Source: Candidatus Scatovicinus merdipullorum
GTDB lineage: Bacteria > Bacillota > Clostridia > Oscillospirales > Acutalibacteraceae
DNA length: 64,000 nucleotides
Reading direction: 5' to 3'
Assembly: GCA_018712865.1 (NCBI GenBank)
Contig: DVGH01000034.1
Coordinates: forward strand, 48,941-112,940
Shown here: piece by piece, positions 3,712-22,595 of the stretch
How the letters are laid out: every line of letters begins with the position of its first letter
Numbering within the stretch: position 1 is the stretch's first letter
Notes under the pieces: generated by a model
Told to the model about the DNA's origin: nothing
Database searches by the model: none
Seen by the model: only the letters and a program-made list of their open reading frames with translations
Program-made: the position numbers and the translations under genes

Positions 3712-3820
3712 ATTTTTTCCCCTTTTCCAAGCATCCTGGTCTGTATTGACAAAAACCTGGATATTGTGTATTTATATTAGTATAGCACAAACACTTTCAA
3801 CAGAACAGGAGAATTTCGTC

Positions 3821-4720
3821 GTGGAACAAATTTTGGTATCGGGCCTTTTAAATACAGAAGCAACCGTACAAATCGACCACTTTCCCATAGAATACTGCCC
3901 CATTCATTTTCCGTTTTTTGGTATAAGTACGTCTGTATCGGGGGTGGGCTTCAACGTTGCAAAAGCGTTGCGCACGCTGGGCGACAGCGTAACACTGTTT
4001 TCCCTGACAGGCAACGACCAAACCGGGCAGACCATTTTGCAGGCTGTGCAAGAAGAAGGGCTGGACGCCGCATATATCCTCCCTGCCCTGGCGCAGTCTC
4101 CCCAGTCAGTCGTTTTATATGACAAAAGCGGAAAGCGCCAGATTTATTGTGACCTGAAGGATATTCAACAGGCCGTATGCGACCCTGCGCTTTTTGCACA
4201 GGCGCTTACAGACTGCAAAGCAGCCATATTATGTAATATCAATTTTAACCGCCCGCTTTTATCGGTTGCAAAAAAGGCCGGCGTTTTGATCGCTACAGAC
4301 GTTCATGTCCTGTCGGATCTGCACGATGCCTTTAATGCAGACTTTATGCACCATGCCGACGTGCTTTTTTTAAGCGACGAGGCAATCCCCGGCGAGCCTT
4401 CGGCCTTTGTAAAAGCGCTTGCCGGCATTTACTGCTGTAAGGTCATTGCCGTGGGTCTTGGCCATAAAGGCGCTTTGCTTTATACAAGGGAAAACGGACA
4501 ATGCATCCATATTCCCGCCGTTTACACCCGTCCGGTTGTCAATACGGTCGGCGCGGGCGACGCGCTTTTTTCCTCCTTTATGCATTTTTATACAAAAACA
4601 AACGACGCGCTTTTCTCTTTACAACGCGCCGTGTATTTTGCCTCTTATAAAATTGGCGAAGCGGGCGCGGCAAACGGCTTTATAGATGAATCGGCGCTTA
4701 ACTCCCTGATAAATACCTAA
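3821..4720 (+). CDS. PfkB-family carbohydrate/nucleoside kinase
   Basis: C-terminal PfkB signature NTVGAGDALFSSF. I moved the start to GTG 3821, 7 nt after CAGGAGAA. The TTG at 3746 in the track is more likely a TTGACA -35 box. Confidence 0.72.
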   Translation: MEQILVSGLLNTEATVQIDHFPIEYCPIHFPFFGISTSVSGVGFNVAKALRTLGDSVTLFSLTGNDQTGQTILQAVQEEGLDAAYILPALAQSPQSVVLYDKSGKRQIYCDLKDIQQAVCDPALFAQALTDCKAAILCNINFNRPLLSVAKKAGVLIATDVHVLSDLHDAFNADFMHHADVLFLSDEAIPGEPSAFVKALAGIYCCKVIAVGLGHKGALLYTRENGQCIHIPAVYTRPVVNTVGAGDALFSSFMHFYTKTNDALFSLQRAVYFASYKIGEAGAANGFIDESALNSLINT

Positions 4721-4785
4721 CGGACGTATACAACGGCGGCAAAGGCAAATAATAAATTAAATTCTACATAATACAGTAGGAATGG

Positions 4786-5334
4786 ATGATTCTTATGCCC
4801 GTCGTCGTGTTATGCTCCTGCCGCAGGGACCAAAGCCTGTACCATATCCTTCTGCGCGCGCTTTCCAATTATGGCGGCGTACAGGCTATGCTTGGCAATA
4901 CTCTGTATACAAGCTGTCAGGACCCCCATTTTACGCTTTTCTGTACGCACAGCGCACCACGTGCCGACAACACAAAGGGCGTTTTGGTATTTGACGAAAA
5001 TTTTAAAAACGCGGGCAGCTTTCCGCTTTCCCAGGGCCTGATCCCCGTTTTGGAAAGCAATAACAAAAAGGCGGTTTCCCGCTTAAAAGACACAAGCCAC
5101 ATTGCCATTACCTGCGGCACCGGCCTGCGCGACACCTTAAGCATTGCAAGCCTGGACGATATGCGCGCCACCATCAGCCTGCAGCGTGAGCTGACCTCTA
5201 TAAACGGCGACGCATACGAACCGCACGACTTTATTGCGCATCTTTCCCAAAAGACAGATGTTTACCCGCTGCTTGCCGTGTGCGGAACGCTTTTGCTGTG
5301 CGGGATTAAACCGGAGGATGGCTATTATATTTAA
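4786..5334 (+). CDS. Hypothetical protein resembling a degenerate Mur-ligase central domain
   Basis: 182 aa. VVVLCSCRRDQSLYHILLRAL sits where Mur ligases carry the ...TGxxGKT P-loop. The C-terminus (...YPLLAVCGTLLLCGIKPED) resembles the hNv.NaLaA...G segment. It looks paralogous to ORF 16310..16897. Confidence 0.45.
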   Translation: MILMPVVVLCSCRRDQSLYHILLRALSNYGGVQAMLGNTLYTSCQDPHFTLFCTHSAPRADNTKGVLVFDENFKNAGSFPLSQGLIPVLESNNKKAVSRLKDTSHIAITCGTGLRDTLSIASLDDMRATISLQRELTSINGDAYEPHDFIAHLSQKTDVYPLLAVCGTLLLCGIKPEDGYYI

Positions 5335-5498
5335 ATTCAATAGGCAATGCTGTCTTTTCTGTTTATCCAGACCTTCTCCATGGGGGTGTTTTATAGAGGC
5401 TTTTATCTTATCCACCGAGTTTCTGCGTTTATATAGATTACTTCTAAAAAGACTTTCTTCATTTCTTGTGGAAGAAACGAACAAAAGACCAAAAAAGA

Positions 5499-5523
5499 GG
5501 GGACTTGCAAAGTTCCTTTTTTT
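5499..5523 (+). terminator. Candidate rho-independent terminator
   Basis: Stem GGGGACTT / AAGTTCCT (with G-U pairs), loop GCA, followed by TTTTTTT. Confidence 0.45.
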
Positions 5524-5613
5524 ATTTGTTCCAAAACTTGCTTTTGTTTGCACTTTATGCAGGTAAGATAAAAACCCGCAGAAAGTTTAAAAAACAAAAA
5601 GAAGCGCGCCCGG

Positions 5614-6462
5614 CTATGCCAATTGTCCATCTTCCTTGTACAGGCCCCGCAAAAGCTTAATCTCCTGCGCATAGCCTGCAAGGTCGTTTGGCGTTTCCAA
5701 ATAAAACGGCAAATGCCGAAGCTTTGGGTGATTGATCACCCTGACAATTGCCTCCAGCCCCAAATGGCCGTTGCCAATCGTTTCGTGCCTGTCCTTATGG
5801 CTGCCGCCCGGGTTTTTGCTGTCGTTCAAATGGATCGCATACAGCCGCTCAAGGCCAATCACCCGGTCAAATTCCTCCAAAACGCCGTCTAAGTCATGCA
5901 CAATGTCATACCCCGCGTCGCTCACATGGCAGGTGTCCAGGCACACGCCCATTTTTTCATTTAGCTGCACACGGTCTAAAATTGCGCGCAGCTCTTCAAA
6001 GCTGCGGCCTACCTCGCTGCCCTTTCCCGCCATCGTTTCCAACAGCACGGTCGTGGTCTGCTCCGGCTTTAAAATCGTGTTAAGAAGCGCTGCAATCATC
6101 TCTATTCCCGCCTCTGCCCCCTGCTTTACATGACTGCCCGGATGAAAATTATAATAATTATGCGGCACATGCTCCATCCGCTTTAAGTCATCCTCCATAA
6201 TCATCTGCGCCAGCTCCCTGGTGTGAGCGTCCGCAGAGCAGGCATTCAGCGTATACGGCGCATGCGCCAAAATGGGAGCAAATCCCTTATCCGCTATATA
6301 TGCATGAAACTGCGCAATATCCTCCGGGTCTATATCCTTTGCCGCAAACCCTCTGGGATTGCGCGTAAAAAATTGGAACGTGTTGGCGCCTATGGACACC
6401 GCCTCTTGCGCCATATGGGTAAACCCCTTGGCAGCCGACAAATGTGAACCAATATGCAGCAT
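5614..6462 (-). CDS. nfo: Deoxyribonuclease IV (endonuclease IV)
   Basis: [14 protein letters not shown]...[13 protein letters not shown]... and H/D/E metal ligands throughout. Start set at ATG 6462 behind GAAAGGACGG. The 26-codon extension in the track lacks an RBS. Confidence 0.9.
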
Positions 6463-8522: not shown

Positions 8523-9674
8523 TTATTTACGGTTAAAAATAGACATGATGTCATAGAAGGTGTCATCGTCATCCGCTACATCCACATTGCCCGTTTTCCT
8601 TGCCGCTACATCTTTTGCCGCCGCAACAGAAGCCGCCTGGTTTCTGAGCATTTCTGTCCGTGAAGAGGTCATAGACATTCTGGATGTATGCGCGTTGTCC
8701 TTCTTTCCGCCGTCAAACGATGCAAAGCCTGTAGCAATCACCGTAACGCTCATTTCGTCTTCCATATTTTCATCCAAAACGGCACCCCAGATAATATTTG
8801 CTTCCGGGTCGGCCTGGTCTGTAATCATTGCGGAAGCCGTATCAATTTCATCCAGCCCAATATCCGCAGAAGCCGTTATATTGACAATCACGCCCTTGGC
8901 ACCGTCAATCGAAGTTTCAAGCAGCGGGCTTGTAATCGCCATTCTTGCAGCCTCTTCCGCCTTGTCCTTTCCCTGTGCATAACCAATACCCATGTGCGCA
9001 TAACCCGCATTGTTCATAATAGAGGTTACGTCTGCAAAGTCCAGGTTGACCAAACCGGGAATCAAGATCAGGTCAGAAATGCTTTGTACGCCCTGGCGCA
9101 GCACATCGTCCGCCAGGTCAAACGCATTCTTCAATGTAATGCGCTGTTCACTTGCATATTTCAACCTTTCGTTCGGTACAACAATCAGCGAATCCACATG
9201 CTCCCTTAAGGCCGCAATACCGGCTTCGGCCTGTTCCATACGCTTTTTTCCCTCAAAGGCAAAAGGCTTTGTTACAATGGCAACTGTCAATACGCCCATA
9301 TCCTTTGCAATTTCCGCAACAATCGGCGCAGCGCCCGTGCCGGTTCCGCCGCCCATACCGGCAGTGATAAAGACCATGTCTGTACCCTGCAGCACAGCGG
9401 TAATTTCCTCACGGTTCTCTTCTGCGGCCTCTCTGCCGACCTCCGGCTTAGAGCCAGCGCCTTTTCCATGCGTAATCTTTTCGCCTATCTGAAGCTTTTG
9501 TGAAGCATTGGAAAACTGCAAAACATGGTCGTCGGTATTAATTGCAATAAACTCAACACAGCGCACACCCATTTTTACCATGCGGTTTACAGCGTTTCCG
9601 CCGCCGCCGCCTACGCCAATGACCTTAATAACAGGGATGTTGTTGCTGTACTCTTTTTCAAGCTCGAATGCCAT
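8523..9674 (-). CDS. ftsZ: Cell division GTPase FtsZ
   Basis: Tubulin signature [25 protein letters not shown]. 383 aa. RBS AGGAGGAAG. Confidence 0.97.
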
Positions 9675-9770
9675 TTGAACTTCCTCCTAATCAACATCTG
9701 ATTGCTTCATCCAACTAAAAAAGCCTGATGTTTTAAATCTATAATCCAATCGACTATACGCCTATTTAAT

Positions 9771-9799
9771 AATGTATCACAAGCGCTGAAAAATTTCAA
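9771..9799 (-). promoter_or_regulatory. Sigma-A-type promoter upstream of ftsZ
   Basis: Minus strand TTGAAA-17 bp-TGaTACATT, about 95 nt upstream of the ftsZ ATG. Confidence 0.5.
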
Positions 9800-9877
9800 T
9801 AAGTTCTTGCAGAAAAATTTAAAAATTCGGCAAATATTCTCGATTTCAACGCCTTTTACCCAAGTACCCCGAAAAGA

Positions 9878-11338
9878 TCAGGCATATACCCCATCATCAT
9901 ACCCGTCTGTCCCGTCGGCATAACCATCGTAATAGTAGCCGTCGTCATAATAATAACCATCGTCAGCATAGCTGTCGTCAGAATAACCGTCATCGTAATA
10001 GCTTTCGTCAGTATAGCCGTCGGTATATCCATCGCCGCTGTCCTGCCAGGTATAATCTGTCACAGGCTCGGTGGCGGCGGTTGTGGGCTCGGTAGAAGGC
10101 TCGGTGGCATACAGCGTATTGTCCGGGTTGTAATATGATGCCTTTTTGCTGCCATTGCAGGCCGAAACATCTAAAACGCCCATATCGGTCTGGGCAAGCT
10201 TCTGGTCAATAATCGTCTGCGCCGTGCGGATTTTATAATCAATATCCTCTGGCATTCCCAGAACAATCTGGATCCTGTCTGCATAATTTAACTTAATATT
10301 GGCCGTGTTCGAAACATCAATTTCCCGTATGCCGTTAAATTCATTTTTTTGTAAGGCCTTGGTGATCTCGTTTAAGATCGGCATAATATTCTTATTCTTC
10401 ACCTGGGCCGTGTTTCCCACCTCGGCCTTCTCCAGCGTACAGCCTTCGATCACCGGCGCGTCATATGTATTTTTACTGATTCGCTCCAGCACTCTCCCCT
10501 CAGAGGAAATCACCACAAATTCTTCCCCTTCCGCAATCACATACGCCGGTTGCGCCTCTGTAATATGTATGACCATCGTATCGGGGATTCGTATGTCAAT
10601 TTTCGCCTCTTCCACATACGGGAGCGTCTGCTTGATCTTCTCTTCCCCTGCTTTTTTATCACTTAAAAACAGATTTTCCCCCAGCGTCAGACCGCTTGCA
10701 TCAATAATCTCCTGGTTGCTGTAATGCGCAGATCCTTCCACCTCAAACTGTTCTGATTTAAAAAATACCGTCAGTGAAAGCACAACGCCTACGATCAGGA
10801 TCACCAGCAGGATCGCGCCGCAAACGGCAAAGTTAATCACCTTTCTGGTTTTTCTGGAAAATGGCTCTCTGCTGAGCTCCTCCTGGATCCTTGCCTCTTC
10901 CTCGGCCTGCATGGCGGCATTTTGCTTCATAGCGACTTCATCTGTGTAAAAGCCGTCGCCGTAATCGTCCCGCCGGACAATCGGCTCCTCTGTATACGTC
11001 TTTCTTGCAGGGCCGCTCTTGGCTCTTCTTGCCGCGTCACCTACCTTCTTACCGCCGCGTTGGGGCATACGCGTTGATTTTGCCTCGGCCTTTTGCACCG
11101 TTTTTATAGCGGGGCTGCGCTTTGTCTGTTGTCTTTTTTGTTTTTCCTCAGAAAAGGGCCGCCCTGCACTTTTTTCCGGGGCAGTCCGCTTATTGCCCGG
11201 GGCTGCGGCAGGCCTTCTTCCGCCTGTCGGCCTTTTTGCATTGCGCATCTTCTGGCTGCCATTTTGCATGCCCGGCCTTTGTTCAGACATCCGCTTGTTT
11301 TGCTGATTTTGATTGCTGCCTTTGTTCTTGTTTTCCAT
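9878..11338 (-). CDS. ftsQ: FtsQ/DivIB-type cell division protein with long basic N-terminal tail and Asp/Tyr-rich C-terminal tail
   Basis: Single TM segment (INFAVCGAILLVILIVGVVLSLTVFF), then a POTRA-like FEVEGSAHYSNQEIIDASGL... and an FtsQ-like beta domain. It sits between murA and ftsZ in the dcw cluster. Confidence 0.7.
   Translation of the reverse strand: MENKNKGSNQNQQNKRMSEQRPGMQNGSQKMRNAKRPTGGRRPAAAPGNKRTAPEKSAGRPFSEEKQKRQQTKRSPAIKTVQKAEAKSTRMPQRGGKKVGDAARRAKSGPARKTYTEEPIVRRDDYGDGFYTDEVAMKQNAAMQAEEEARIQEELSREPFSRKTRKVINFAVCGAILLVILIVGVVLSLTVFFKSEQFEVEGSAHYSNQEIIDASGLTLGENLFLSDKKAGEEKIKQTLPYVEEAKIDIRIPDTMVIHITEAQPAYVIAEGEEFVVISSEGRVLERISKNTYDAPVIEGCTLEKAEVGNTAQVKNKNIMPILNEITKALQKNEFNGIREIDVSNTANIKLNYADRIQIVLGMPEDIDYKIRTAQTIIDQKLAQTDMGVLDVSACNGSKKASYYNPDNTLYATEPSTEPTTAATEPVTDYTWQDSGDGYTDGYTDESYYDDGYSDDSYADDGYYYDDGYYYDGYADGTDGYDDGVYA
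9881..10060 (-). repeat. Low-complexity coding repeat (D/Y/G-rich C-terminal tail of FtsQ-like protein)
   Basis: The last 60 aa (TDYTWQDSGDGYTDGYTDESYYDDGYSDDSYADDGYYYDDGYYYDGYADGTDGYDDGVYA) contain 18 D, 16 Y and 10 G by my count. Confidence 0.9.
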
Positions 11339-11393
11339 CTTTTCTACATCCTTACAGATTGAAGTCCATATCTTTCTCCGGCCGTTTTCCGTT

Positions 11394-12647
11394 TTATACC
11401 TTTTTGACCGTCGCTCCTACGCTGGATAAATAGAGCTCTATATCCTCATAGCCGCGTTCCAAAAATTTTACGCCCTTAAGCTCGGTTGTTCCTTCCGCCG
11501 CAAGCGCCGCTACAACCAGTGCGGCACTGCCGCGCAGGTCAAGTGCCTCCACAGAAGCACCGTAAAAATGCTTTACGCCCTCTACAACGGCAACTCTGCC
11601 TTCCACCTTAATATTTGCACCAAGACGCAACAGCTCCCCTACATGTTTATAACGGCTTTCAAAAATATTTTCCACAAACACGCTCGTTCCGTTTGCAAGG
11701 GCCGTCATCGCCATAATGGGCGCCTGCGCGTCTGTAGGAAAACCGGGGTACGGCATCGTCCTTATAAATTTTACTGCCTTAAGCCGTTGCGGTGCAAAAA
11801 TATGCAGTGTATTCCCGCTGATACGGATCGTACAGCCGGCTTCTTCAAAAACGGAAATAATGGAACCCAAATGCGCAGGAACAACATGCTTCAGTTCCAG
11901 GCTGCCGCCGGTCACCGCCGCCGCAGCCATATAGGTTGCGGTCACAATTCTGTCCGGAATAATCGTGTGCTGCGTCCCTGTAAGTCGTTCTACGCCGTCA
12001 ATAAAAATAGTTCCCTCGCCTGCGCCGGAAATTTTTGCGCCGCAGCCGTTTAAAAAGTCTGCAAGGTCGCAAATCTCCGGCTCTCTTGCCGCATTTGTAA
12101 TGATCGTCGTTCCCTTGGCAAGCACAGCCGAAAGCATAATATTTTCAGTAGCACCCACGCTTGGAAAGGACAACGTAATCTTTGCGCCGTGTAAGCCATT
12201 GGGAACGCTGCAATCTAAAATCCCGTGATGTTCTGTAATTTCCAGCCCCATCAGACGCAGCGCCTTTAAGTGCAAATCGATCGGACGCGGGCCCAGCTCG
12301 CATCCTCCCGGAAAAGACAGCCTTGCTCTTCCCATGGTGGCAATAATTGCACCTAAAAAGACAATGGAGGAGCGCATCTCCCGCATTAACGCATCCGGTA
12401 TATCATACCGGCACACGCTGTGTGTATCCACAGTCAGGGTGCTGCCGCTGCGGCTGACATTGCAGCCCAGATAACGCAAAATTTTGATAGAAGTTTCCAC
12501 ATCGGAAAGGCGCGGGCAGTTATGTAGCACACAGCGGTCGCCTGAAAGCAGTGTTGCCGCCAGAACAGGGAGCGCGCTATTTTTAGCCCCCTGTACAGAA
12601 ATACTGCCGTTTAGTCTGTTGCATCCCTCTATCATAAGCTTCGACAC
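11394..12647 (-). CDS. murA: UDP-N-acetylglucosamine 1-carboxyvinyltransferase (copy 1)
   Basis: KLMIEGCNRLNGSISVQGAKNSALPVL, active-site Cys in FPGGCELGPRPIDLH. Start set at GTG 12647 behind GGAAAGGG; this start is uncertain, and the track start is 12668. Confidence 0.9.
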   Translation of the reverse strand: MSKLMIEGCNRLNGSISVQGAKNSALPVLAATLLSGDRCVLHNCPRLSDVETSIKILRYLGCNVSRSGSTLTVDTHSVCRYDIPDALMREMRSSIVFLGAIIATMGRARLSFPGGCELGPRPIDLHLKALRLMGLEITEHHGILDCSVPNGLHGAKITLSFPSVGATENIMLSAVLAKGTTIITNAAREPEICDLADFLNGCGAKISGAGEGTIFIDGVERLTGTQHTIIPDRIVTATYMAAAAVTGGSLELKHVVPAHLGSIISVFEEAGCTIRISGNTLHIFAPQRLKAVKFIRTMPYPGFPTDAQAPIMAMTALANGTSVFVENIFESRYKHVGELLRLGANIKVEGRVAVVEGVKHFYGASVEALDLRGSAALVVAALAAEGTTELKGVKFLERGYEDIELYLSSVGATVKKV

Positions 12648-12777
12648 ACAGAACACCCTTTCCAACAAAAGCTTTAGGGCTGAAAATCAACCCTTGATAT
12701 CTTATGTTTTAAGGCTGTCTGTTGTTACACAGCTACAAACACCAAACCGTTTCTATACAGCCGGCACAGTCCGTCGG

Positions 12778-13905
12778 TTAAACAGCTGCTGTGCCAAGCA
12801 CCTTTTTAATAACCGAATAAATCCTTTCGTTTGCATCTGTAATTGCAAGTCTTTTGGCATTTTCGCTGTATTTTCTAAGCTTTTCCGGATCGCTTACCAT
12901 ATCGTCCACCGCCTGCATAACCGCTTCCTGGGTCAGCTCCTCTTCTTTTAAAACGCGAGCTGCCTGTCGGTTGGCCATTGCCATAGCGTTGTGATACTGG
13001 TGGTTTTCCGCCACATTGGGCGAAGGGATCAAAATAGCGGGCTTTCCCTGCGCCTGCAGCTCGCTTAACGTAATCGCCCCCGCCCTGCATATAACAAGGT
13101 CTGCCGCCGCAAGGCACACGGGCATATCATCAATATATTCCCTTATATCTAAATTTTCACAGCCGTCCGGGTCTGCCCCCATCTTTCGCAAAAGATCGGG
13201 GAACCACTTCCCGTATTGGCCGTAAGCGTGTATAATTTGGTATTTGCCGTCCTTTGCGCTGCGCGCTATCATTCCTGCGACATTCTCGTTGATCTTCCGG
13301 GCGCCCAGGCTTCCGCCAAATGACAAAACCACAGGGCGGCTATCCAGCCCCAGCTTCTTTCTGCACGCCGTTTTGTCCGCCGTTAAAATTTCCTGCCTTA
13401 CAGGGTTGCCCGTCGTAACGCAGCGGCATCCGTCGCTTAAATATTGTTTTGCCTCCGGCATTGCAAGCATAACGCGCTTTACATACCGGGAAAGCATTTT
13501 TGTAGTAACGCCCGGAAAGGCGTTTTGTTCATGGATCACAGTCGGGATAGAAAGCTTTGCCGCCGCCCGGATCACCGGGCCGCTTACATAGCCGCCCGTC
13601 CCCATACAAATATCCGGTTTAAAATCCCGGATAATCCTTTTAGACACAGTGCCTGCCTGCAACGCCTTTTTTACTGTAATGATATTATCCTTTACGGCGC
13701 TGGGGGAAAAGCTCCGCTTAAATCCAGACACAGAAATCCCTTCAAAAGCAAAACCGGCCTGCGGCACCAAGCGCTCCTCCATGCCTCCTTTTGCTCCTAC
13801 ATATAAAATTTGCACGTCCGGCTCTTTTTTCCTTATATAGCCGGCTACCGCGAGCGCAGGGTTAATATGGCCCGCCGTGCCGCCGCCTGCAAATAAAATT
13901 CTCAT
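12778..13905 (-). CDS. murG: Undecaprenyldiphospho-muramoylpentapeptide beta-N-acetylglucosaminyltransferase
   Basis: MRILFAGGGTAGHINPAL..., C-terminal GAITLSEL and PSPNVAENHQ. Start at ATG 13905 behind AAGGAGGGTG. Confidence 0.92.
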   Translation of the reverse strand: MRILFAGGGTAGHINPALAVAGYIRKKEPDVQILYVGAKGGMEERLVPQAGFAFEGISVSGFKRSFSPSAVKDNIITVKKALQAGTVSKRIIRDFKPDICMGTGGYVSGPVIRAAAKLSIPTVIHEQNAFPGVTTKMLSRYVKRVMLAMPEAKQYLSDGCRCVTTGNPVRQEILTADKTACRKKLGLDSRPVVLSFGGSLGARKINENVAGMIARSAKDGKYQIIHAYGQYGKWFPDLLRKMGADPDGCENLDIREYIDDMPVCLAAADLVICRAGAITLSELQAQGKPAILIPSPNVAENHQYHNAMAMANRQAARVLKEEELTQEAVMQAVDDMVSDPEKLRKYSENAKRLAITDANERIYSVIKKVLGTAAV

Positions 13906-13942
13906 AGAAGCACCCTCCTTTGTCACACAGCCTGTCAAAGGC

Positions 13943-15211
13943 TTATGCTTTATTAATATTGGATGTCCTTGAAATCGAAAGCACAATCCCCATCTGCGCC
14001 AACAGCATGACAAGCGAGCTTCCGCCTGAGCTGAAAAACGGCAGGCTGATCCCGGTGTTTGGAAGCAAATCGGTAATAACCAGAATATTCAAAATTACCT
14101 GCAGCCCAATTTGTGCGGTCAGGCCCACACCCAAAAGTGTACCGAACTTATCTTTCGCACGCATCGATATGGTAATCCCGCGCCATACAAGCAGTCCAAA
14201 AATTGCAAGAATAATCACCGCGCCGATCAACCCCAGCTCTTCACAGACAATCGCAAAGATAAAGTCGTTTTGCGGTTCCGGCAGGTACAGATACTTTTGC
14301 CTGGATTGCCCTAACCCCAGACCCATCAGCCCGCCTGAGCCAATCGCATACATCGAATTCCTGGTCTGCCATGTGGTCTGCCACATTTCAGGCGTTGTGT
14401 ATTCCAGCGCCTGTCCCCAGCCTTCCATACGCTCCATCGCATAAGAAAGCAGCCCGGTGGCCGACATGATAAGAAAAATAACCAGTATGCCGGCACCCGC
14501 AAACAAAAACCACTTTCCCTTCACGCCCGATATATACATCATCAGCGCCGTTAAAAGCGTTACAATAACAATACCGGAATAATGCGGCTCCAACAGCAAC
14601 AGCACCACCGTAGGAACAAGGATTACAATTGCCGGTAGAACACCGTATTTAAATGTTTCCATCTTATAAAAATACACAGAGCCCCAATGGGCAAAAAACA
14701 AAATCAACGCAAACTTCATCAGCTCAGACGCCTGAAAACTTGCTATGCCCAGGTCAATCCATCGGTGCACACCCGTTTCAGACGGGATAAACAGCACAAC
14801 AACCAAAAGTAAAAACGCAAGGGCCAAAACCCATACCGCCAGCTTATGGAAGTGATGATAATCAAAAAAAGAAATAGCAAGCATTGCAGCAACGCCAATC
14901 ACTGCAAAAATTACCTGTCTTTTTAAATACAGGTAACTATCTCCGTTGGTAAAATAAGCAACCGGATAGCTTGCGGAAAACATCATAATAATCCCAATAA
15001 CAAGCAAAATCAAGATTAAAAGTAAAAAAGGCATATCCAATCCGGCGCGTACCGAAAACAGCTTGAGCTTTTTCCGTATACCGCGGCGTTTTGTATCCGC
15101 CGTTTTTTCGTGCGCAGCTACAGAGGCATAGTAGCCGCGCCTTCTATTATATGCTTCCTGTGCTTTCCGTTTAAGCTCCGCCTCGTATCTTAGGGGATAT
15201 TTTCTATCCAT
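13943..15211 (-). CDS. ftsW: SEDS-family peptidoglycan glycosyltransferase FtsW/SpoVE
   Basis: About 10 TM segments with motifs QASELMKFALILF, LPEPQNDFIFA and LPFFSSGGSS. It lies between mraY and murG. Confidence 0.88.
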   Translation of the reverse strand: MDRKYPLRYEAELKRKAQEAYNRRRGYYASVAAHEKTADTKRRGIRKKLKLFSVRAGLDMPFLLLILILLVIGIIMMFSASYPVAYFTNGDSYLYLKRQVIFAVIGVAAMLAISFFDYHHFHKLAVWVLALAFLLLVVVLFIPSETGVHRWIDLGIASFQASELMKFALILFFAHWGSVYFYKMETFKYGVLPAIVILVPTVVLLLLEPHYSGIVIVTLLTALMMYISGVKGKWFLFAGAGILVIFLIMSATGLLSYAMERMEGWGQALEYTTPEMWQTTWQTRNSMYAIGSGGLMGLGLGQSRQKYLYLPEPQNDFIFAIVCEELGLIGAVIILAIFGLLVWRGITISMRAKDKFGTLLGVGLTAQIGLQVILNILVITDLLPNTGISLPFFSSGGSSLVMLLAQMGIVLSISRTSNINKA

Positions 15212-15258
15212 CTTTCCACCACCATACAGTCATACATAAAACGCGCGCCAGCCCTATT

Positions 15259-16278
15259 TTAAAAGCCCGTCATTACCAACGCAAGTGCCAACACGCCGCA
15301 TAACGCCGTCGCCAGGCTGAACACAACTACAATTTTCACTTCCGACCATCCACACATTTCAAAATGGTGGTGGATCGGGCTCATTTTAAACAGCCTTTTT
15401 CCTTTTGTCGCTTTAAAATACACAACCTGCAAAACGACCGAAAGCATCTCAAGCAAATATACAAGCGCAATGGGGATTAAGATAATCGGCATATTCATTC
15501 CAAACGCCAACGCGCATAAAAAACCTCCAAGATACAAGGAACCCGTATCGCCCATAAAAACCTTTGCCGGATGAAAATTCCAGATCAAAAAGCCAAGGCA
15601 TCCGCCCGCCAGAGCCGCAGACATAATCCCAATCCCCTGCGAAACCAAGGTAGAGGCAATTAGCATAAAAGCAAGCGCGGCAAAAAAGGTCATAGATCCT
15701 ACCAGCCCGTCTATCCCGTCTGAAAGGTTAACGGCGTTTACAACGCCCACAATCAGCACCGCAGACAATATCCAGTAAAGCCATCCCAGATCCACCGGCC
15801 CAACAAAGGGGATCAGTGTTTCAGAAGTAACGCCTGTTAAAGACAACGTAAACAAATACGCAGCCGCAACGCCAAACTGCAAAATCAGCTTTTGCTTTGC
15901 CGTAAGGCCCAAATTCCGCTTCTTCACAACCTTGATATAATCGTCAAAAAAGCCAATTGCGCCAAATGCCGCCGCCATGGCAAGGCCCGCAAACACCTTG
16001 TTAAAAGAAAGCGTCACCTGTGTAAATACGGGATCCTCTCCCGAAGCAAACGCGCTGCAAAGCAAAACACCGGCAACAGACGTCACAATGGTACTGGCCA
16101 CAAACATCAAACCGCCCATGGTCGGTGTACCCTGCTTTCCTTTATGCCATTTTGGCCCAATATCTAAAATCGTCTGACCATATTTCAGCTTTTGTAAAAA
16201 AGGTACAAGCCATTTTCCTAAAATTGCGGCAATCGCAAACGAAACTACCGCACTTCCCAGTATCCAACCAACGTTCAT
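15259..16278 (-). CDS. mraY: Phospho-N-acetylmuramoyl-pentapeptide transferase
   Basis: Motifs KxGTPTMGG, NLSDGIDGL, FMGDTGSL and PIHHHFE. Start at ATG 16278 behind GGAGG. Confidence 0.95.
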   Translation of the reverse strand: MNVGWILGSAVVSFAIAAILGKWLVPFLQKLKYGQTILDIGPKWHKGKQGTPTMGGLMFVASTIVTSVAGVLLCSAFASGEDPVFTQVTLSFNKVFAGLAMAAAFGAIGFFDDYIKVVKKRNLGLTAKQKLILQFGVAAAYLFTLSLTGVTSETLIPFVGPVDLGWLYWILSAVLIVGVVNAVNLSDGIDGLVGSMTFFAALAFMLIASTLVSQGIGIMSAALAGGCLGFLIWNFHPAKVFMGDTGSLYLGGFLCALAFGMNMPIILIPIALVYLLEMLSVVLQVVYFKATKGKRLFKMSPIHHHFEMCGWSEVKIVVVFSLATALCGVLALALVMTGF

Positions 16279-16309
16279 AGAAAAACCTCCATCATTTTCA
16301 ACCTCAAAA

Positions 16310-16897
16310 TTATGCAAAGGCCGCCAAACTTTCAAGGGTGCTCAGCCCGTTTGCTATCTCTTTTAGCGCAATATCCGAAGCAAGCAGCGCGCCTGCAAGT
16401 GCAAGCGCATTTTCAACTGAAAGGCCGCAACCCTCTTTTAGCTTAATCCTGCCAATCAGTCCCGTGCCTACAAGCTCAAAATTTATATGCTCCGCCGTTT
16501 GCGTTATATTCTTTGCAACAAGGTCCGCTCGGTCGTCATTGTGGGAATATTCTACAATTTTCTCTTTTTCCTTTTCTTCCAGCCGCTGTTTTCTCATCTC
16601 GTCATAGGGAAGGACCAGCGTAGTACATGTCTGCAGCCACTGCTGCTCATATGGGCAGGCGCTTTCATCTGTAAACAACACCGTATTGACCGCACGCTGT
16701 CCCGCCGCAAAGGTAATACTTCCAACGCAGTAGGGGTGCTCCGTATAAACAGCCATACTTTTTGCCGTTACACTCTTTCCTGCCTCTGCAAGCACATGCT
16801 CCAACGCTTTTAAGGAATGTTCCACCAATGGCTGCCTTCCCACCGCCGTTATCTGTCCGTACGGGGGCGTGCCGCCGCTTGATTTTTTGCTCTTCAT
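16310..16897 (-). CDS. Mur-ligase-like remnant (central-domain-like, no P-loop, no C-terminal domain) in the murF position
   Basis: 195 aa, tightly packed between spoVD and mraY. ...ADLVAKNITQTAEHINFELVGTGLIGRIKLKEGCGLSVENALALAGALLASDIALKEIANGLSTL mirrors the MurF segment ...FTATNI...F.L......V.LPLPGRHNIANALAAAALS...L..I..GL..L. The expected GxxGKT is replaced by AVGRQPL. Confidence 0.5.
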   Translation of the reverse strand: MKSKKSSGGTPPYGQITAVGRQPLVEHSLKALEHVLAEAGKSVTAKSMAVYTEHPYCVGSITFAAGQRAVNTVLFTDESACPYEQQWLQTCTTLVLPYDEMRKQRLEEKEKEKIVEYSHNDDRADLVAKNITQTAEHINFELVGTGLIGRIKLKEGCGLSVENALALAGALLASDIALKEIANGLSTLESLAAFA

Positions 16898-16925
16898 CGC
16901 TTTCCCTGCCTTTATTTATCTAAAA

Positions 16926-19175
16926 TTAAAAGATCGGTTCTCCATAGCTGCTGTCCTGCACAAACGTCACAATAACCACCGTGCCCTGGCTTACCATGGT
17001 TCCCTGCGCAATGCTTTGCGATTGGGAAATCCCCTCGCCTGCGGCGCTTGCGCCCGCAATGCTGATATTTAAATTATACTGTGACGCTATACTGTTTACA
17101 TCTGATATGGAAAGCCCTGTAAGATCGGGAACCTCTACCATATCCTCATCTACGCCGGCTGCATCTGTATAAAGCACAACCGTACCGCCCTGCGGAATTC
17201 TGGACTCCGCCGCAGGAATCTGTGCAGCAACGGTCGTTCCTTCACCCTTTACAATAGAAACAAATCCGTCTTCCTCGGCCGCAGCCTGCGCCTGCTCCAC
17301 ACTCTCGCCCACGTAATTGCCCGCCGTTGTATCCAGCATCGACAGCTCTTCTTCGTTATACTGTGTTTCAACCTCTAAATATGGCAGCACCTCCGCCATA
17401 ATTTCCGCAAACACGGGTGCTGCAACCTGGCTTCCGTAATACTGTCCGCCAGTGGGGGTGTCAAAGTATACAAGCAGCGCCACCTGCGGATCATCCGCCG
17501 GGGCAAAACCGCAGAAAGATGCAATATAGTCCTCTATTCCATCGTCATTAGAATCGGTCAGCTTTTCAGACGTTCCCGTTTTTCCGGCAATCCTGTACCC
17601 CTGTACATAACCGTTTGTCGCCGCACCGCTAATCGCGTTTTCCTCCAGTATGGCGCACAGCTCCTTAGACACCTCTTCCGAAATGACCTGCCGTTTCACG
17701 GTTGTATCTGTCGACTCTACCACGTTGCCGTCGCTGTCAAGAATCTGCCTGACCGTATAAGGCTGCAAAAGCTTCCCGCCGTTTGCAACTGCAGAAACAG
17801 CCGTCACCATCTGGATTGGCGTTACAGAAAAGTTTTGCCCAAACGATGCAACCGCCAGATCCATGGGCCCCATCGAGCCGTCCTCGTTAAAAAAGATATC
17901 TTCCGATTCGCCCGGCAGGTCGATCCCCGTTTTCTCAGAAAATCCAAACGCCTGGTAATATTCCCAAAATTTTGTCGCGCCAATTAAATTACCAATCTGC
18001 ATAAACGCCGGGTTGCAGGAATTACATAACGCTTCTTCAAAGGTCTGTGTGCCATGCCCTGCTGTATTATGGCAGCTGATGGACGATGCACCCTCAAACG
18101 GCACGTAAGATCCTGTGCAGTAAAAGCGCGACTCGTCGTTAATCAGATTTTCCTCCAGCGCCATGGAAGAAGTAATGATTTTCCATACCGATCCGGGATA
18201 ATAGGTGTCGCTGACCGCCTTGTTCCTCCATTGCTTGGAAAGCGCAGCGCTTTCCGCCGCAGCCTTTTCATCCTCCGGCAGCTGCGCAATCTCATCCTTT
18301 GCCGTCTGGTTGACTAAAGTAAACGGGTCGTTTAAGTCATACCCCTCTTCTACCGCCATTCCTAAAATAGCACCCGTATTGACCTCCATCATAATCGCCA
18401 CCGCGCGATTATATACCTTGTGCTCTTCTATACCTTTTTGCAAATACTTTTCCATAATATGCTGGATCGTCTCGTCAATCGTCAGCACCAGGCTGTTTCC
18501 ATCCTCTGCCTGTACCTTTTGTTCATAATCAAACGGCATCTCCGTCCCGTTTGCATTCTTCGCCGTTACCAGCCGGCCGGGTGTTCCCGTCAGGCTTTCA
18601 TCATACTGGTATTCTATGCCGGAAAGGCCCTGGTCGTCGCTGCCTGTAAACCCGATCAGAGAAGAAGCAAACGATCCATATGGATAGTACCGTTTATAGT
18701 CCTCAATCAGGTCGATTACACCGGTAATATCGTGTTCTTCGTCCAGCTCATCTACAAACTTCAGGATTTCGTCTCTGACGTCGCTTTCAATTTGCCGCTT
18801 CACTACCACATAATAAGACCTTTCCTTTGTTTTCTCAAAAATATCCGCCTGCTCTAAATCCAGTATCTCTGCTAAACCCTGGGAAACAATCGTGCGTTCT
18901 TCGTCAGATTCAAAATTGATCGGGGACAATACCACCTTCCAAACGGTAGCGCTTTGCGCAAGCACCTTTCCGTTGGTGTCATAAATGGTACCCCTCCTTG
19001 CACTGATCGTCGTATCGTTCAGCTGCTGCGCCACAGCCGCCTGTTGCAGCTCTTCCCCCTGCACAACGCTTAGCTGCGTAAGGCGTAATATTGCGCTGCC
19101 AAAACCAACCACAAGAATTAATACCAAAATAATTACAGACCTGTGAACCAGCTTTGTATTTGCGCCCTTTGACAT
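16926..19175 (-). CDS. spoVD: Class B penicillin-binding protein (SpoVD/FtsI type) with C-terminal PASTA domains
   Basis: Transpeptidase motifs PGSVWK (SxxK), SCHN (SxN-like) and KTGTS. N-terminal TM and dimerisation domain, two PASTA-like repeats at the C-terminus. Start at ATG 19175 behind GGAAGGGAG. Confidence 0.9.
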   Translation of the reverse strand: MSKGANTKLVHRSVIILVLILVVGFGSAILRLTQLSVVQGEELQQAAVAQQLNDTTISARRGTIYDTNGKVLAQSATVWKVVLSPINFESDEERTIVSQGLAEILDLEQADIFEKTKERSYYVVVKRQIESDVRDEILKFVDELDEEHDITGVIDLIEDYKRYYPYGSFASSLIGFTGSDDQGLSGIEYQYDESLTGTPGRLVTAKNANGTEMPFDYEQKVQAEDGNSLVLTIDETIQHIMEKYLQKGIEEHKVYNRAVAIMMEVNTGAILGMAVEEGYDLNDPFTLVNQTAKDEIAQLPEDEKAAAESAALSKQWRNKAVSDTYYPGSVWKIITSSMALEENLINDESRFYCTGSYVPFEGASSISCHNTAGHGTQTFEEALCNSCNPAFMQIGNLIGATKFWEYYQAFGFSEKTGIDLPGESEDIFFNEDGSMGPMDLAVASFGQNFSVTPIQMVTAVSAVANGGKLLQPYTVRQILDSDGNVVESTDTTVKRQVISEEVSKELCAILEENAISGAATNGYVQGYRIAGKTGTSEKLTDSNDDGIEDYIASFCGFAPADDPQVALLVYFDTPTGGQYYGSQVAAPVFAEIMAEVLPYLEVETQYNEEELSMLDTTAGNYVGESVEQAQAAAEEDGFVSIVKGEGTTVAAQIPAAESRIPQGGTVVLYTDAAGVDEDMVEVPDLTGLSISDVNSIASQYNLNISIAGASAAGEGISQSQSIAQGTMVSQGTVVIVTFVQDSSYGEPIF

Positions 19176-19557
19176 ATCAGACAAACTCCCTTCCAACTCA
19201 CTGGGATCTTTCCCGCATAGGCAGCCGCTCTTGCCGGCCGCCGGGAAGACGCTACCATTTTTATACTACTATCCATATCTTCACTTTTTACAGGATATTT
19301 TTCCTGCATCTATCTACATATATAATATAAGCATATCTTACGCACGGGGTAAACCTGAAATTTTTGCCTCGGCTTTTTACATATATCGTTTTGCATATAA
19401 AAATACGGTTGTAACATAAGTCAGCCAGCAATTACCCCATAACAGTAATACGTCCGTTTACCAACTCATTCAGAAACGGCAGACCGCCGCTCCCTGTTAC
19501 AACCGCTTCGTCATTCTTATAATTCTTATATATATGTGTATTAGAAACCCGCTCTGG

Positions 19558-20076
19558 TTATGACCAAAGCCCCGCAATCGCATCAGCAATGGATTCAAAC
19601 AGATTGCCGCCGTCTGTCTGAGAGATTTCCGCTTTATCCCCCTGTGAAAGACTTATGTACTCTTTTTGATAATTGTCGGCTCTGGACATCCCCAACTCTT
19701 CTGATGCATACGCCTCTACCACAGATGGGGAAAGCTTGGACTCCACCTTCATCTGCAACTGCGTATACAGGCTTTCCTGATCTGCAAGCTCGCTTGCAGC
19801 GTTGCTGATCTGCTGGTTGAGCTCTGTCAATTGCACCTGTCCATGTACAATCATAACCACAGCGCCGGTGACAATCATGCCCAGCATAAACCCGGTAAAT
19901 AGCTTTGCAGGGTTATATTTACGCCTGCGTATTTTATCCAACTGCTCCTCAGGAATGCTCAGAACATTGTTCTTTCTTCTTCTGTGAATCTGCTTTTTCG
20001 GCTCTTCTATCTCAATCTGTTCGGCTGCTTCAAACAGGCTAATATCATACGCTGCATTTCTCTCTTCAAAAGCCAT
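19558..20076 (-). CDS. ftsL: FtsL-like cell division protein (bitopic, coiled coil)
   Basis: 172 aa: cytoplasmic N-terminus, one TM (LFTGFMLGMIVTGAVVMIV), then a heptad-like QLTELNQQISNAASELADQESLYTQLQ. It lies between rsmH and the PBP. Confidence 0.6.
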   Translation of the reverse strand: MAFEERNAAYDISLFEAAEQIEIEEPKKQIHRRRKNNVLSIPEEQLDKIRRRKYNPAKLFTGFMLGMIVTGAVVMIVHGQVQLTELNQQISNAASELADQESLYTQLQMKVESKLSPSVVEAYASEELGMSRADNYQKEYISLSQGDKAEISQTDGGNLFESIADAIAGLWS

Positions 20077-20371
20077 TCCTTACACCTCTATGTAAAACCC
20101 TTAACATCTATAAATATATAAACGAAGTCGTATTTTTGTATTTTCTTTTCTATGTTTAAACGTATTTTTTATGGAATTTGGGTGGCAAACTGCCTTGTAT
20201 TATTTTTGTAACTTTTTAATTTTTATCTATTTTTTTGCGGCTTGTTAGCCGAACATATGTATGCACAATATGTAGTGTCCCATGCAAAACTTTTTCATTG
20301 AACCACAATATATAGTCTACTACATGTACCTGCTTTTGTCAAAGCTTTTTTTAACAATTTTTACAACTTTG

Positions 20372-21295
20372 TTACAATTTTTCTGCTGCGCGCAGCTTTG
20401 CGCTTCTGCTTCTTGGGTTTTTCTGCAATTCCTGCGCTGATGCCTCCACCGGCTTTTTAAAAATAAGCTTTGCTTTGGGCTTTTTCCCGCAAACGCATAT
20501 GGGAAAATCCTTCGGGCAGGTACATCCCTGGCACCACAAAGCCATACGTTGTTTGACAATGCGGTCCTCCAAGGAATGAAAACTTATCACCGCAAGCCGT
20601 CCGCCTGGTTTTAAAATGGAAAACGCGGCGTCCAGCCCCTGCGAAAGCCTGTCAAGTTCACCGTTGACAGCAATGCGAAGCGCCTGAAACGTTTTCCTCG
20701 CAGGATGCCCGTCTCGCCTTCTGGCCGCGGGCACAGCGCCTTTAATAATTTCAGCAAGCTGCGTGGTCGTTTGTATCGCTTCTTTTTCCCTGGCCTTTAT
20801 AATTGCATCTGCAATCGGTCCTGCAAATTTTTCTTCCCCATAGGTGCGAATAATCTTTGCAAGTTCCCCATACGGCAGAGTGTTCACCAACTCGTACGCC
20901 GTCGTCCCCTGTTGACTCATACGCATATCCAGCGGAGCCTCGTAATGAAAGGAAAATCCACGCTGCGCAGTATCGAGCTGTCTGGAGGAAACCCCTATAT
21001 CCAACAGCACCCCGTCAACGCTTTCAAATCCAAGCGACTGTACAACCGTATCCATCTGACTAAAATTTGCCTGCACTACTTTGGAATTGCCATTTCCAAA
21101 AAACCTCTTTGTTACTGCTTCAATGGCATCGGGATCCTGGTCAATAGAAATCAGCGTCCCGGTTTTCAGCCTTTTCAAAATCTCAGCTGAATGGCCGCCT
21201 CCTCCCGCCGTGCCGTCCACGTAAACCCCATTTGGTTTTATGGCAAGCGCCTCTATGGTTTCGGCAAGCAGCACCGGCATATGGGAAAACTCCAT
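20372..21295 (-). CDS. rsmH: 16S rRNA (cytosine1402-N4)-methyltransferase
   Basis: HMPVLL..., DGTAGGGGHS, DLGVSS, SFHSLEDR. Start at ATG 21295 behind GGAGG. Confidence 0.93.
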   Translation of the reverse strand: MEFSHMPVLLAETIEALAIKPNGVYVDGTAGGGGHSAEILKRLKTGTLISIDQDPDAIEAVTKRFFGNGNSKVVQANFSQMDTVVQSLGFESVDGVLLDIGVSSRQLDTAQRGFSFHYEAPLDMRMSQQGTTAYELVNTLPYGELAKIIRTYGEEKFAGPIADAIIKAREKEAIQTTTQLAEIIKGAVPAARRRDGHPARKTFQALRIAVNGELDRLSQGLDAAFSILKPGGRLAVISFHSLEDRIVKQRMALWCQGCTCPKDFPICVCGKKPKAKLIFKKPVEASAQELQKNPRSRSAKLRAAEKL

Positions 21296-21314
21296 CGGTA
21301 CGACCTCCGTCACG

Positions 21315-21749
21315 CTAAATCATTTCCAGCAAAGCAACAATATCCTCGCTTGCCTGGCGATCCAGGTAATTTTCCCAGTTTTCCCGGTTCCAAATTTCCA
21401 CCCTTGTACCGCAGCCAATAATCACGGCCTCTTTTTCCAGACAGGCATGCTGCCGTAAATGATCCGGGATCAGGATTCTTCCCTGTGCGTTCGGTTCAGA
21501 AACGTCTGCTCCCGCACAGAAATACCTGTACAGCCCTGTTGCCTTTGAAACCGGCAAAGCGCTGATTTTTGCCAGAAACTCTTCCCATTTTGCAAGGGAA
21601 AGCACCTGTAGACAGCCTTTTCCTTCCTCAGGTCCCGTATGGATCCCTTTTGTGACATAGAAAGTCTCGCCAAGCTCCTCACGAAACTTTGCGGGCATAA
21701 TAATGCGGCCTTTCGCATCTATGTTATGTTGGTAAGTCCCAATAAACAT
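21315..21749 (-). CDS. mraZ: Transcriptional regulator MraZ
   Basis: MFIGTYQHNIDAKGRIIMPAKFR... plus a second DxxGR-type repeat (NAQGRILIP). 144 aa, first gene of the dcw cluster. Confidence 0.93.
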   Translation of the reverse strand: MFIGTYQHNIDAKGRIIMPAKFREELGETFYVTKGIHTGPEEGKGCLQVLSLAKWEEFLAKISALPVSKATGLYRYFCAGADVSEPNAQGRILIPDHLRQHACLEKEAVIIGCGTRVEIWNRENWENYLDRQASEDIVALLEMI

Positions 21750-22052: not shown

Positions 22053-22514
22053 TCAGTTTCCCGTACGCTGGCTTGCTTTCAAGCTTTGTCTTGTCTTCTT
22101 AATTTCGTTTGCCTGCGCTGTCATCAACTCATCTGTTTTACGCATAAGCTCTTCTACATATTCGTTGGCGGCCTTTCTGATCTCCTTGGCCTTCAGCTTT
22201 GCGTCAGAAATAATCTCGTTTGCCTCCTGCTGTGCCTGGCGCACAATTTCATTCTGATTGACAAGTGTCTTTTTCCGCTCCTCGGCAGAACGCACAATGC
22301 TTTCGCCTTCCTTTTTTGCGTCTGCAATGATTTGCGCCCGATCTGCAACAATCGCCTTTGCCTGCCTTACCTCCTGCGGAAGCGTTTCCTCAATGTCATC
22401 CAGAATTTCCTTAACATGCTCCGCGTCTATTACGGACTTCCCCCCGGAAAGCGGCAGGGTTTTTGCATCGTCAATAACCTCTCTTAATTCAATAATCAAA
22501 TCTTCAACCTTCAT
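22053..22514 (-). CDS. Coiled-coil protein of unknown function (ATP synthase b-subunit-like heptads)
   Basis: 153 aa, Lys/Glu/Ala-rich helical sequence (...QAKAIVADRAQIIADAKKEGESIVRSAEERKK...). Start at ATG 22514 behind GAAAGGAA. Confidence 0.6.
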   Translation of the reverse strand: MKVEDLIIELREVIDDAKTLPLSGGKSVIDAEHVKEILDDIEETLPQEVRQAKAIVADRAQIIADAKKEGESIVRSAEERKKTLVNQNEIVRQAQQEANEIISDAKLKAKEIRKAANEYVEELMRKTDELMTAQANEIKKTRQSLKASQRTGN

Positions 22515-22595
22515 TATACACTCATTCCTTTCTCTTGATTCCCTAAATACTGAACTAAAACTAAAGCTTGGCACACATTAGCATAAAGCACATAT

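Follow-up and report, generated by a model that had tools for sequence, protein, structure and literature searches.

A probable pseudo-ligase derived from MurE and reduced to the central domain in the dcw operon of Candidatus Scatovicinus merdipullorum

The 64-kb window analysed here (64,000 nucleotides of contig DVGH01000034.1 from Candidatus Scatovicinus merdipullorum) carries a division and cell wall (dcw) operon in which a short open reading frame (ORF), hereafter named ORF195, lies between the gene of a class B penicillin-binding protein (PBP) and mraY. ORF195 (16310..16897, minus strand, ATG start) encodes 195 amino acids and was characterised through the ORF listing and its sequence, hhalign comparison of its protein family, AlphaFold2 (AF2) modelling, Foldseek and the ratio of nonsynonymous to synonymous substitution rates (dN/dS, or omega). 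It is very probably a real, co-transcribed gene encoding a stand-alone, shrunken central (ATP-binding) domain of MurE. The TAA stop codon of the PBP gene is located at 16926-16928, leaving a gap of 28 nt to ORF195, and the likely ATG of mraY (16278) lies 31 nt beyond the end of ORF195. The 28-nt gap contains the sequence AGGCAGGGAAAG (16900..16911, minus strand), a plausible ribosome-binding site by its resemblance to the consensus, and no strong terminator was seen in the surroundings of ORF195. The sequence thus agrees with the packing and the ribosome-binding site described in the original prediction, which had been made from the sequence alone. The GC content of ORF195 and its GC content at third codon positions (GC3) are in line with those of the neighbouring genes; horizontal acquisition was ruled out, since GC and GC3 are native.

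The relationship of ORF195 to the Mur ligases is weak when the single sequence is used. ORF195 alone matched the Pfam family PF08245 (Mur_ligase_M) with an E value of 0.011 and 16.1 bits, below the gathering threshold of 24 bits, and its matches to the NCBIfam models murF (6e-5), MurE (1.3e-4) and murC (5e-3) were all far under the cut-offs. No relevant match to ORF195 was obtained with phmmer among the PDB sequences, and a word-indexed protein search returned two near-identical proteins only. A family of proteins of 140-200 amino acids emerged only when relatives were gathered through 80 genome loci fetched via MraY, against which tblastn was run, together with an exhaustive HMMER search. The hhalign comparison of this family with the MurE proteins of the related loci gave a probability of 99.4%, an E value of 2e-21 and an identity of 36% over 98 columns. 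Against the PDB, the family profile matched the MurF of P. aeruginosa (6e-7), the MurF of E. coli (5e-4) and the MurE of S. aureus (4e-3).

Structure prediction pointed in the same direction. The AF2 model of ORF195 had a predicted local distance difference test score (pLDDT) of 91 and a predicted TM-score (pTM) of 0.87, and that of a second family member, which is ~27% identical to ORF195, reached values of 94.5 and 0.90, respectively. The top 50 Foldseek matches of the ORF195 model in the PDB were all Mur ligases or their relatives. Both models matched exclusively MurC, MurD, MurE, MurF, a pseudomurein ligase, FPGS and a plant MurE-like protein (8r6s_Q and 9epc_Q), with query-normalised TM-scores up to 0.64 for ORF195 and 0.77 for the second member. 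Profile similarity and the predicted central-domain fold argue, far beyond what chance would give, for membership of the family in the Mur ligase superfamily. The Mur-ligase-like character originally proposed for the protein is therefore upheld; the family profile was decisive and the fold agrees with it. This short family had remained unannotated and has neither a Pfam nor an NCBIfam model. None of 39 family members gave a Pfam match at an E value of 0.01 or better, the only database name found for a family member was 'hypothetical protein', and full-text literature searches brought up no description of a comparable Mur ligase, whether truncated or inactive.

Several comparisons point to MurE, and not to MurF, as the parent of the family. 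The hhalign match of the family to the MurF proteins of the same loci was much poorer (E value of 1.8e-10, identity of 16%), and hidden Markov models (HMMs) built from the related loci scored 55 bits (MurE) and 25 bits (MurF) on ORF195. The tblastn matches in the relatives landed in murE and not in murF, which in these organisms is located downstream of murE or elsewhere. When the ~100 shared residues were used to build a neighbour-joining tree, the short proteins (63 of 63) formed one clade inside MurE, with MurF as outgroup. Gene order is consistent with this position. Two loci (L089 and L090) show the arrangement mraZ-rsmH-ftsL-PBP-X-mraY-ftsW-murG-murA-ftsQ-ftsZ, identical to that of the window, and X in these loci is a murE of 474-475 amino acids. 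Judged from the sequences, the parent of ORF195 is the murE located between the class B PBP gene and mraY. The original prediction of a MurF derivative in a 'murF slot' was not borne out, given the scores above and the murE found in that slot in L089 and L090. Parentage by MurF is ruled out by the hhalign results, the HMM scores and the position in the tree.

A permissive hhalign comparison, in agreement with a merged alignment, placed the whole of ORF195 colinear with MurE residues 89-331, that is, with the central domain. The N-terminal UDP-binding domain (domain 1) is missing; ORF195 has only about 12 residues ahead of the first strand, and the counterpart of the protein is limited to MurE ~89-325. 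Domain 3, which selects the amino acid and carries the DNPR-type motif, is missing as well, and ORF195 stops at the boundary between domains 2 and 3, where 'GVxGRxE' starts. In addition, about 50 internal residues in total are deleted with respect to the MurE central domain, ~35 of them from the GLIGT...TTPE...helix segment and ~13 from the LTQDHLDxH... segment. Residues 16-27 (ITAVGRQPLVEH; 16817..16852, minus strand) comprise the first beta-strand and the lost P-loop position, where MurE reads LIGVTGTNGKTT according to the low-mact hhalign and merged alignments. At this position ORF195 has 'ITAVG-RQPLVE', in which 'GRQPLVE' replaces 'GTNGKTT', and in the AF2 model the strand-to-helix loop at the P-loop site is only ~3 residues long. 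In several other members, the correspondence between the MurE profile and that of the family also covers the P-loop strand and helix. Residues 72-83 (TVLFTDESACPY; 16649..16684, minus strand) appear to be a degenerate counterpart of the FTNLTQDHLDxH motif, followed by the ~13-residue deletion, and here 'NTVLFTDESAC' is paired, with low confidence, with MurE VGVFTNLTQDHLDF. Although the N-terminal half is weakly aligned, no alternative register brings the motifs back. With respect to the original prediction, the alignment sets the TAVGRQPL segment opposite the MurE P-loop, agrees at low confidence with a degenerate TN..DH-type region, and confirms through the 'GVxGRxE' boundary that the ORF stops where the C-terminal domain would begin. 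The absence of the P-loop and of the C-terminal domain was correctly recognised, and the lack of the N-terminal UDP-binding domain has to be added to it.

The loss of catalytic residues extends to the whole family. Only four (L123, G127, D258 and A261) of the 59 MurE central-domain columns with conservation of at least 90% survive in it. Among the 39 members, retention was 0% for K112 and T113 of the P-loop and for N198, H203 and H207, 3% for E175 (EVSSH), 15% for the carbamylated K217 and 8% for the adenine-binding N296. ORF195 itself has the N296 equivalent (in 'SVENALA'), unlike the family at large. Since all the ATP-, Mg- and substrate-binding residues are lost and domains 1 and 3 are gone, ORF195 is predicted to be catalytically dead and cannot be a ligase.

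The best conserved part of the protein is a module formed by residues 91-190 (16328..16627, minus strand), which is 36% identical to MurE and extends as far as the boundary between MurE domains 2 and 3. It includes the 'TYS' strand, a three-stranded antiparallel sheet (ADxxAxNI / FELxG / IGRxxL) and two C-terminal helices. The near-invariant residues Y117, A124, D125, N130, F140, R150 and L165 are located in the 'TYS' strand, the antiparallel sheet and the next helix.

Selection on the gene was estimated from pairs of orthologues. Comparison of ORF195 with a 92%-identical allele present in the metagenome contig L001 gave a dN/dS of 0.28 (bootstrap 95% interval 0.13-0.54), and five other orthologue pairs gave values of 0.09-0.41; a dN/dS of 1 was reached in none of 1000 bootstraps. 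The C-terminal half showed values of 0.07-0.18. All carrier loci have kept the ORF intact, at synonymous divergence (dS) of 1 or more (saturated) and with MraY proteins that are 55-68% identical, and no frameshifted or decayed remnant was found in 40 related loci without the short gene. Among public assemblies, 372 indexed blocks contain the exact ORF195 protein, one of them being a 2.6-Mb contig. Substitutions are few in the 90% cluster of the protein, where the only truncated alleles are two sequences that were probably cut at contig ends. The short gene is thus conserved in the relatives under purifying selection, and 'candidate pseudo-ligase', the label originally given to the protein, appears to be a fair one. 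According to the sequence data, ORF195 would be a pseudoenzyme in the working sense of the term, an enzyme homologue whose catalytic residues have been lost and which purifying selection has kept. The possibility that ORF195 is a frameshifted fragment of a larger gene, such as an intact murF, was ruled out; the flanks measure just 28 nt and 31 nt, and the short gene is found with identical boundaries in close relatives.

The comparison with L001 also revealed an uneven distribution of differences. This contig overlaps the window over 18.75 kb with 98.8% identity, and 211 of the 228 differences are found within a block of ~3.1 kb (window ~16584-19700) that covers the 5' part of ORF195, the entire PBP gene and part of the ftsL region; the rest is ~99.9% identical. 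Such a pattern suggests that the PBP allele is a mosaic produced by recombination, one of whose breakpoints would lie within ORF195 at approximately codons 73-105.

Apart from the window, the short gene was found in 19 of 82 related genome loci and in metagenome contigs, always between the PBP gene and mraY, and distant metagenome members occupy the same slot. All carriers belong to the Eubacteriales families Oscillospiraceae and Acutalibacteraceae, of which they make up a part; they include Caproiciproducens, Caproicibacter, Faecalispora, 'Candidatus Limousia' and many Ruminococcus-labelled and Acutalibacteraceae metagenome-assembled genomes (MAGs). In a neighbour-joining tree of MraY from the 82 loci, the outer clades have the order PBP-murE-murF-mraY or PBP-murE-mraY, and one derived clade contains PBP-short ORF-mraY and empty PBP-mraY arrangements interspersed with each other. 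An ancestral Firmicutes dcw cluster containing murE and murF has been inferred (PMC8136486). These data are most simply explained if the murE of the operon was truncated once and the shortened gene was then inherited vertically, with clean loss on many occasions. Separate truncation events in different lineages were judged unlikely, the 63 sequences having the same boundaries and forming one clade.

A different arrangement was observed in the same slot of locus L031 (Oscillospiraceae MAG JAVBNA010000040.1), which belongs to the outer clades. There, a 960-amino-acid ORF at 3052-5934, between the PBP gene and mraY, encodes a MurE-MurF fusion that matches the MurE and MurF HMMs end to end. The host is a Firmicute; such fusions have been reported in proteobacteria and bacteroidetes (PMC4929429).

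No full-length murE is present in the 64-kb window, where the sole other Mur-type ligase is FolC (39009-40295, plus strand; TIGR01499, 378 bits), which is not a peptidoglycan ligase. Given that the rest of the pathway is present, functional murE and murF genes presumably lie elsewhere in the genome. A protein search gave 120 MurE proteins without organism links.

The operon murE was very probably truncated once within the Oscillospiraceae/Acutalibacteraceae, leaving the central domain only. Purifying selection has kept the family, acting most strongly on the C-terminal antiparallel sheet and helices, and the gene has been cleanly deleted in many sister lineages. ORF195 may keep a protein contact that was once made by the operon-encoded MurE, the candidate partners being MraY, MurG, other Mur ligases or the PBP-FtsW pair, and may act as a non-essential accessory adaptor or modulator that aids the pathway. 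Since the ligand-binding elements are gone and the surface-forming sheet is the most constrained part, protein binding is the likeliest function. Mur ligases have been reported to bind MurG, MraY, MreB and one another, and the gene order in the dcw cluster has been linked to the association of Mur proteins (PMC4929429, PMC10214165). A pseudoenzyme derived from MurE that works as a non-catalytic binding module is the best explanation overall, and in our estimation the chances that it holds in full are evenly balanced. Somewhat lower confidence applies to its functional half taken separately, namely that the protein is a non-catalytic binding module of the peptidoglycan-precursor or divisome machinery. 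A more specific and rather doubtful version would be that of a dedicated, enzyme-free docking subunit, a minimal piece of MurE contacting MraY, MurG, the Mur ligases or PBP-FtsW. The operon would have retained this subunit once the catalytic MurE had been relocated, and its contact surface would be the sheet (ADxxAxNI / FELxGxGxIGR). If so, it would represent a natural dissection of the long-postulated cytoplasmic assembly of Mur ligases, MraY and MurG.

A number of observations weigh against a binding module kept by selection. According to the MraY tree the short gene has been lost repeatedly, so that any function must be dispensable; a non-essential helper role would explain this loss. The neighbour-joining trees of the shared region and of MraY carry no support values. 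MraY has a dN/dS of 0.04-0.18 in the same pairs, and the family is 4-6 times less constrained than MraY. The N-terminal half of the short proteins ranges from 0.06 to 0.80, with two pairs compatible with neutrality, and the omega values of 0.66-0.80 found in some pairs have confidence intervals spanning 1. Length within the family varies between 142 and 202 amino acids. When related MurE proteins were looked up, the genes obtained all lay in dcw clusters of other organisms, apart from one fragmented assembly, and these look-ups located no full-length murE outside the cluster in a carrier genome. The binding role itself is pure inference. Several of these points would fit the main rival explanation, according to which ORF195 is a slowly disappearing relic. 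A working murE would have been duplicated or moved, the operon copy would have lost its outer domains, and the foldable but functionless product would persist under weak selection against misfolding or operon disturbance until clean deletion occurs. The repeated clean absence in sister lineages, an omega of ~0.28 compared with 0.03-0.08 in the neighbouring genes, the nearly neutral N-terminal half in some pairs, the variable length and the complete loss of catalytic residues are all in favour of such a relic. An unconstrained ORF of 195 codons, however, would be expected to gain stop codons or frameshifts, and the ORF is intact in every carrier in spite of the saturated dS and the divergence of MraY. 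Neither the lack of any decayed copy among the 40 loci without the gene, nor the low omega and near-invariant residues of the C-terminal half, nor the confident AF2 models of two members with ~27% identity are in keeping with functionless decay. The decaying remnant offered as an alternative in the original prediction is weakened accordingly, and we consider the relic possible but unlikely.

The remaining explanations fare worse. The nucleotide-binding-domain fold, the Asn of 'SVENALA' equivalent to MurE N296 and the location of the gene directly ahead of mraY could suggest a small-molecule sensor or regulator, in which the remnant of the cleft would bind a nucleotide or UDP-MurNAc-peptide and tune either MraY flux or operon expression. 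This is improbable, since that Asn is found in just 8% of the family, no member has a P-loop of full length (it is either shortened or missing), TTPE and EVSSH have been deleted or replaced, and conservation resides in the antiparallel sheet and not in the cleft. Alternatively, translation of ORF195 could matter by itself, through coupling or an anti-polarity effect on mraY, the protein being irrelevant; the tight packing with gaps of 28 and 31 nt and the absence of a nearby terminator would be compatible with it. The amino acid sequence is nevertheless constrained (omega well below 1, conserved motifs and a confident fold), mraY has its own strong GGAGG, and in many relatives mraY directly follows the PBP gene, all of which makes this explanation very improbable. 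Nothing beyond the homology to Mur ligases speaks for a remaining enzymatic activity of ORF195, whether as one component of a split MurE or in a ligation of new chemistry. Such an activity is effectively refuted at the sequence level and deserves hardly any credence, because the ATP-, Mg- and substrate-binding motifs are missing family-wide and no separate domain-1 or domain-3 ORFs are found in the flanks or anywhere in the operon.

The operon that contains ORF195 spans positions 8523..21749 of the minus strand, on which all its genes are encoded. It starts with mraZ (21315-21749), preceded by a strong terminator and a promoter-like site, and continues with rsmH (20372-21313), an ftsL-like gene (19558-20076) and the gene of the class B PBP (16926..19175). 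This SpoVD/FtsI-like protein contains the Pfam domains PBP_dimer, Transpeptidase and PASTA, and its top NCBIfam model is SpoVD. Downstream of ORF195 are located mraY (15259..16278; Pfam Glycos_transf_4), whose GGAGG lies 8 nt ahead of the ATG, ftsW/spoVE (13943-15211), murG (12778-13905), murA (11394-12668), ftsQ/divIB (9878-11338) and ftsZ (8523-9674). The dcw operon of this clade lacks murB, murC, murD, murE, murF and ddl, and murA is placed between murG and ftsQ; the relatives L089 and L090 depart from this solely in their full murE. The FtsQ/DivIB-like protein has 486 amino acids, with a basic, low-complexity stretch in the N-terminal ~150 residues and an unusual Tyr/Asp/Gly-rich C-terminal tail (...YYDDGYSDDSYADDGYYYDDGYYYDGYADGTDGYDDGVYA). 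A charged ORF of 173 amino acids (22053-22574, minus strand), without any NCBIfam match, is located just upstream of the terminator that precedes mraZ. An Rfam scan of the whole window gave no family reaching its gathering score.

Compared with known systems, the short family is closest to the MurE (meso-diaminopimelate ligase acting on UDP-MurNAc-L-Ala-D-Glu) of the Oscillospiraceae/Acutalibacteraceae, with which it shares the slot and the central-domain fold. MurE has ~480 amino acids, as opposed to 140-200 in the short family, in which domains 1 and 3 and the catalytic motifs are absent. MurF (UDP-MurNAc-tripeptide:D-Ala-D-Ala ligase) belongs to the same superfamily and has the same central-domain end, and the P. 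aeruginosa and E. coli enzymes are the top PDB matches of the family profile; the MurF proteins of the same order are, however, a much poorer match to it than MurE. In concept, the nearest parallel comes from plants, whose plastid-encoded RNA polymerase contains PAP11, a MurE-like protein that is homologous to the Mur ligases but plays a structural part instead of acting as a ligase. PAP11 is a full-length, three-domain eukaryotic protein that belongs to another complex and has an independent origin, whereas the short proteins are single-domain and reside in the dcw cluster. Catalytically dead regulators are also found in cell-wall metabolism, such as CwlM, which activates MurA in mycobacteria, and EnvC and NlpD, which activate amidases. 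The shared concept is that of a pseudoenzyme retained in peptidoglycan metabolism, but CwlM and EnvC/NlpD have unrelated, hydrolase-derived folds and proven functions, while the short family is known from sequence and models. The MurE-MurF fusions and the proposed cytoplasmic complex of Mur ligases, MraY and MurG tie dcw gene order to physical association. Such fusions are active enzymes, in contrast to the short family, which is predicted to have no enzyme function and may represent an interaction module only.

The finding is solid as regards evolution and annotation, and speculative as biology. It describes how the gene of an essential enzyme was turned, in place, into a single-domain pseudoenzyme within a highly conserved bacterial operon, and a single order of gut bacteria displays all the stages (murE-murF, murE alone, the short gene, nothing). 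The family is widely distributed among the abundant Oscillospiraceae/Acutalibacteraceae of the gut, and pipelines that reconstruct peptidoglycan pathways on the basis of dcw synteny could wrongly report murE as present, truncated or a pseudogene. If the binding role is true, ORF195 would provide a small, soluble handle on the Mur ligase/MraY/MurG complex and would show through which surface MurE associates, a surface that has so far been approached only via full-length enzymes and fusions.

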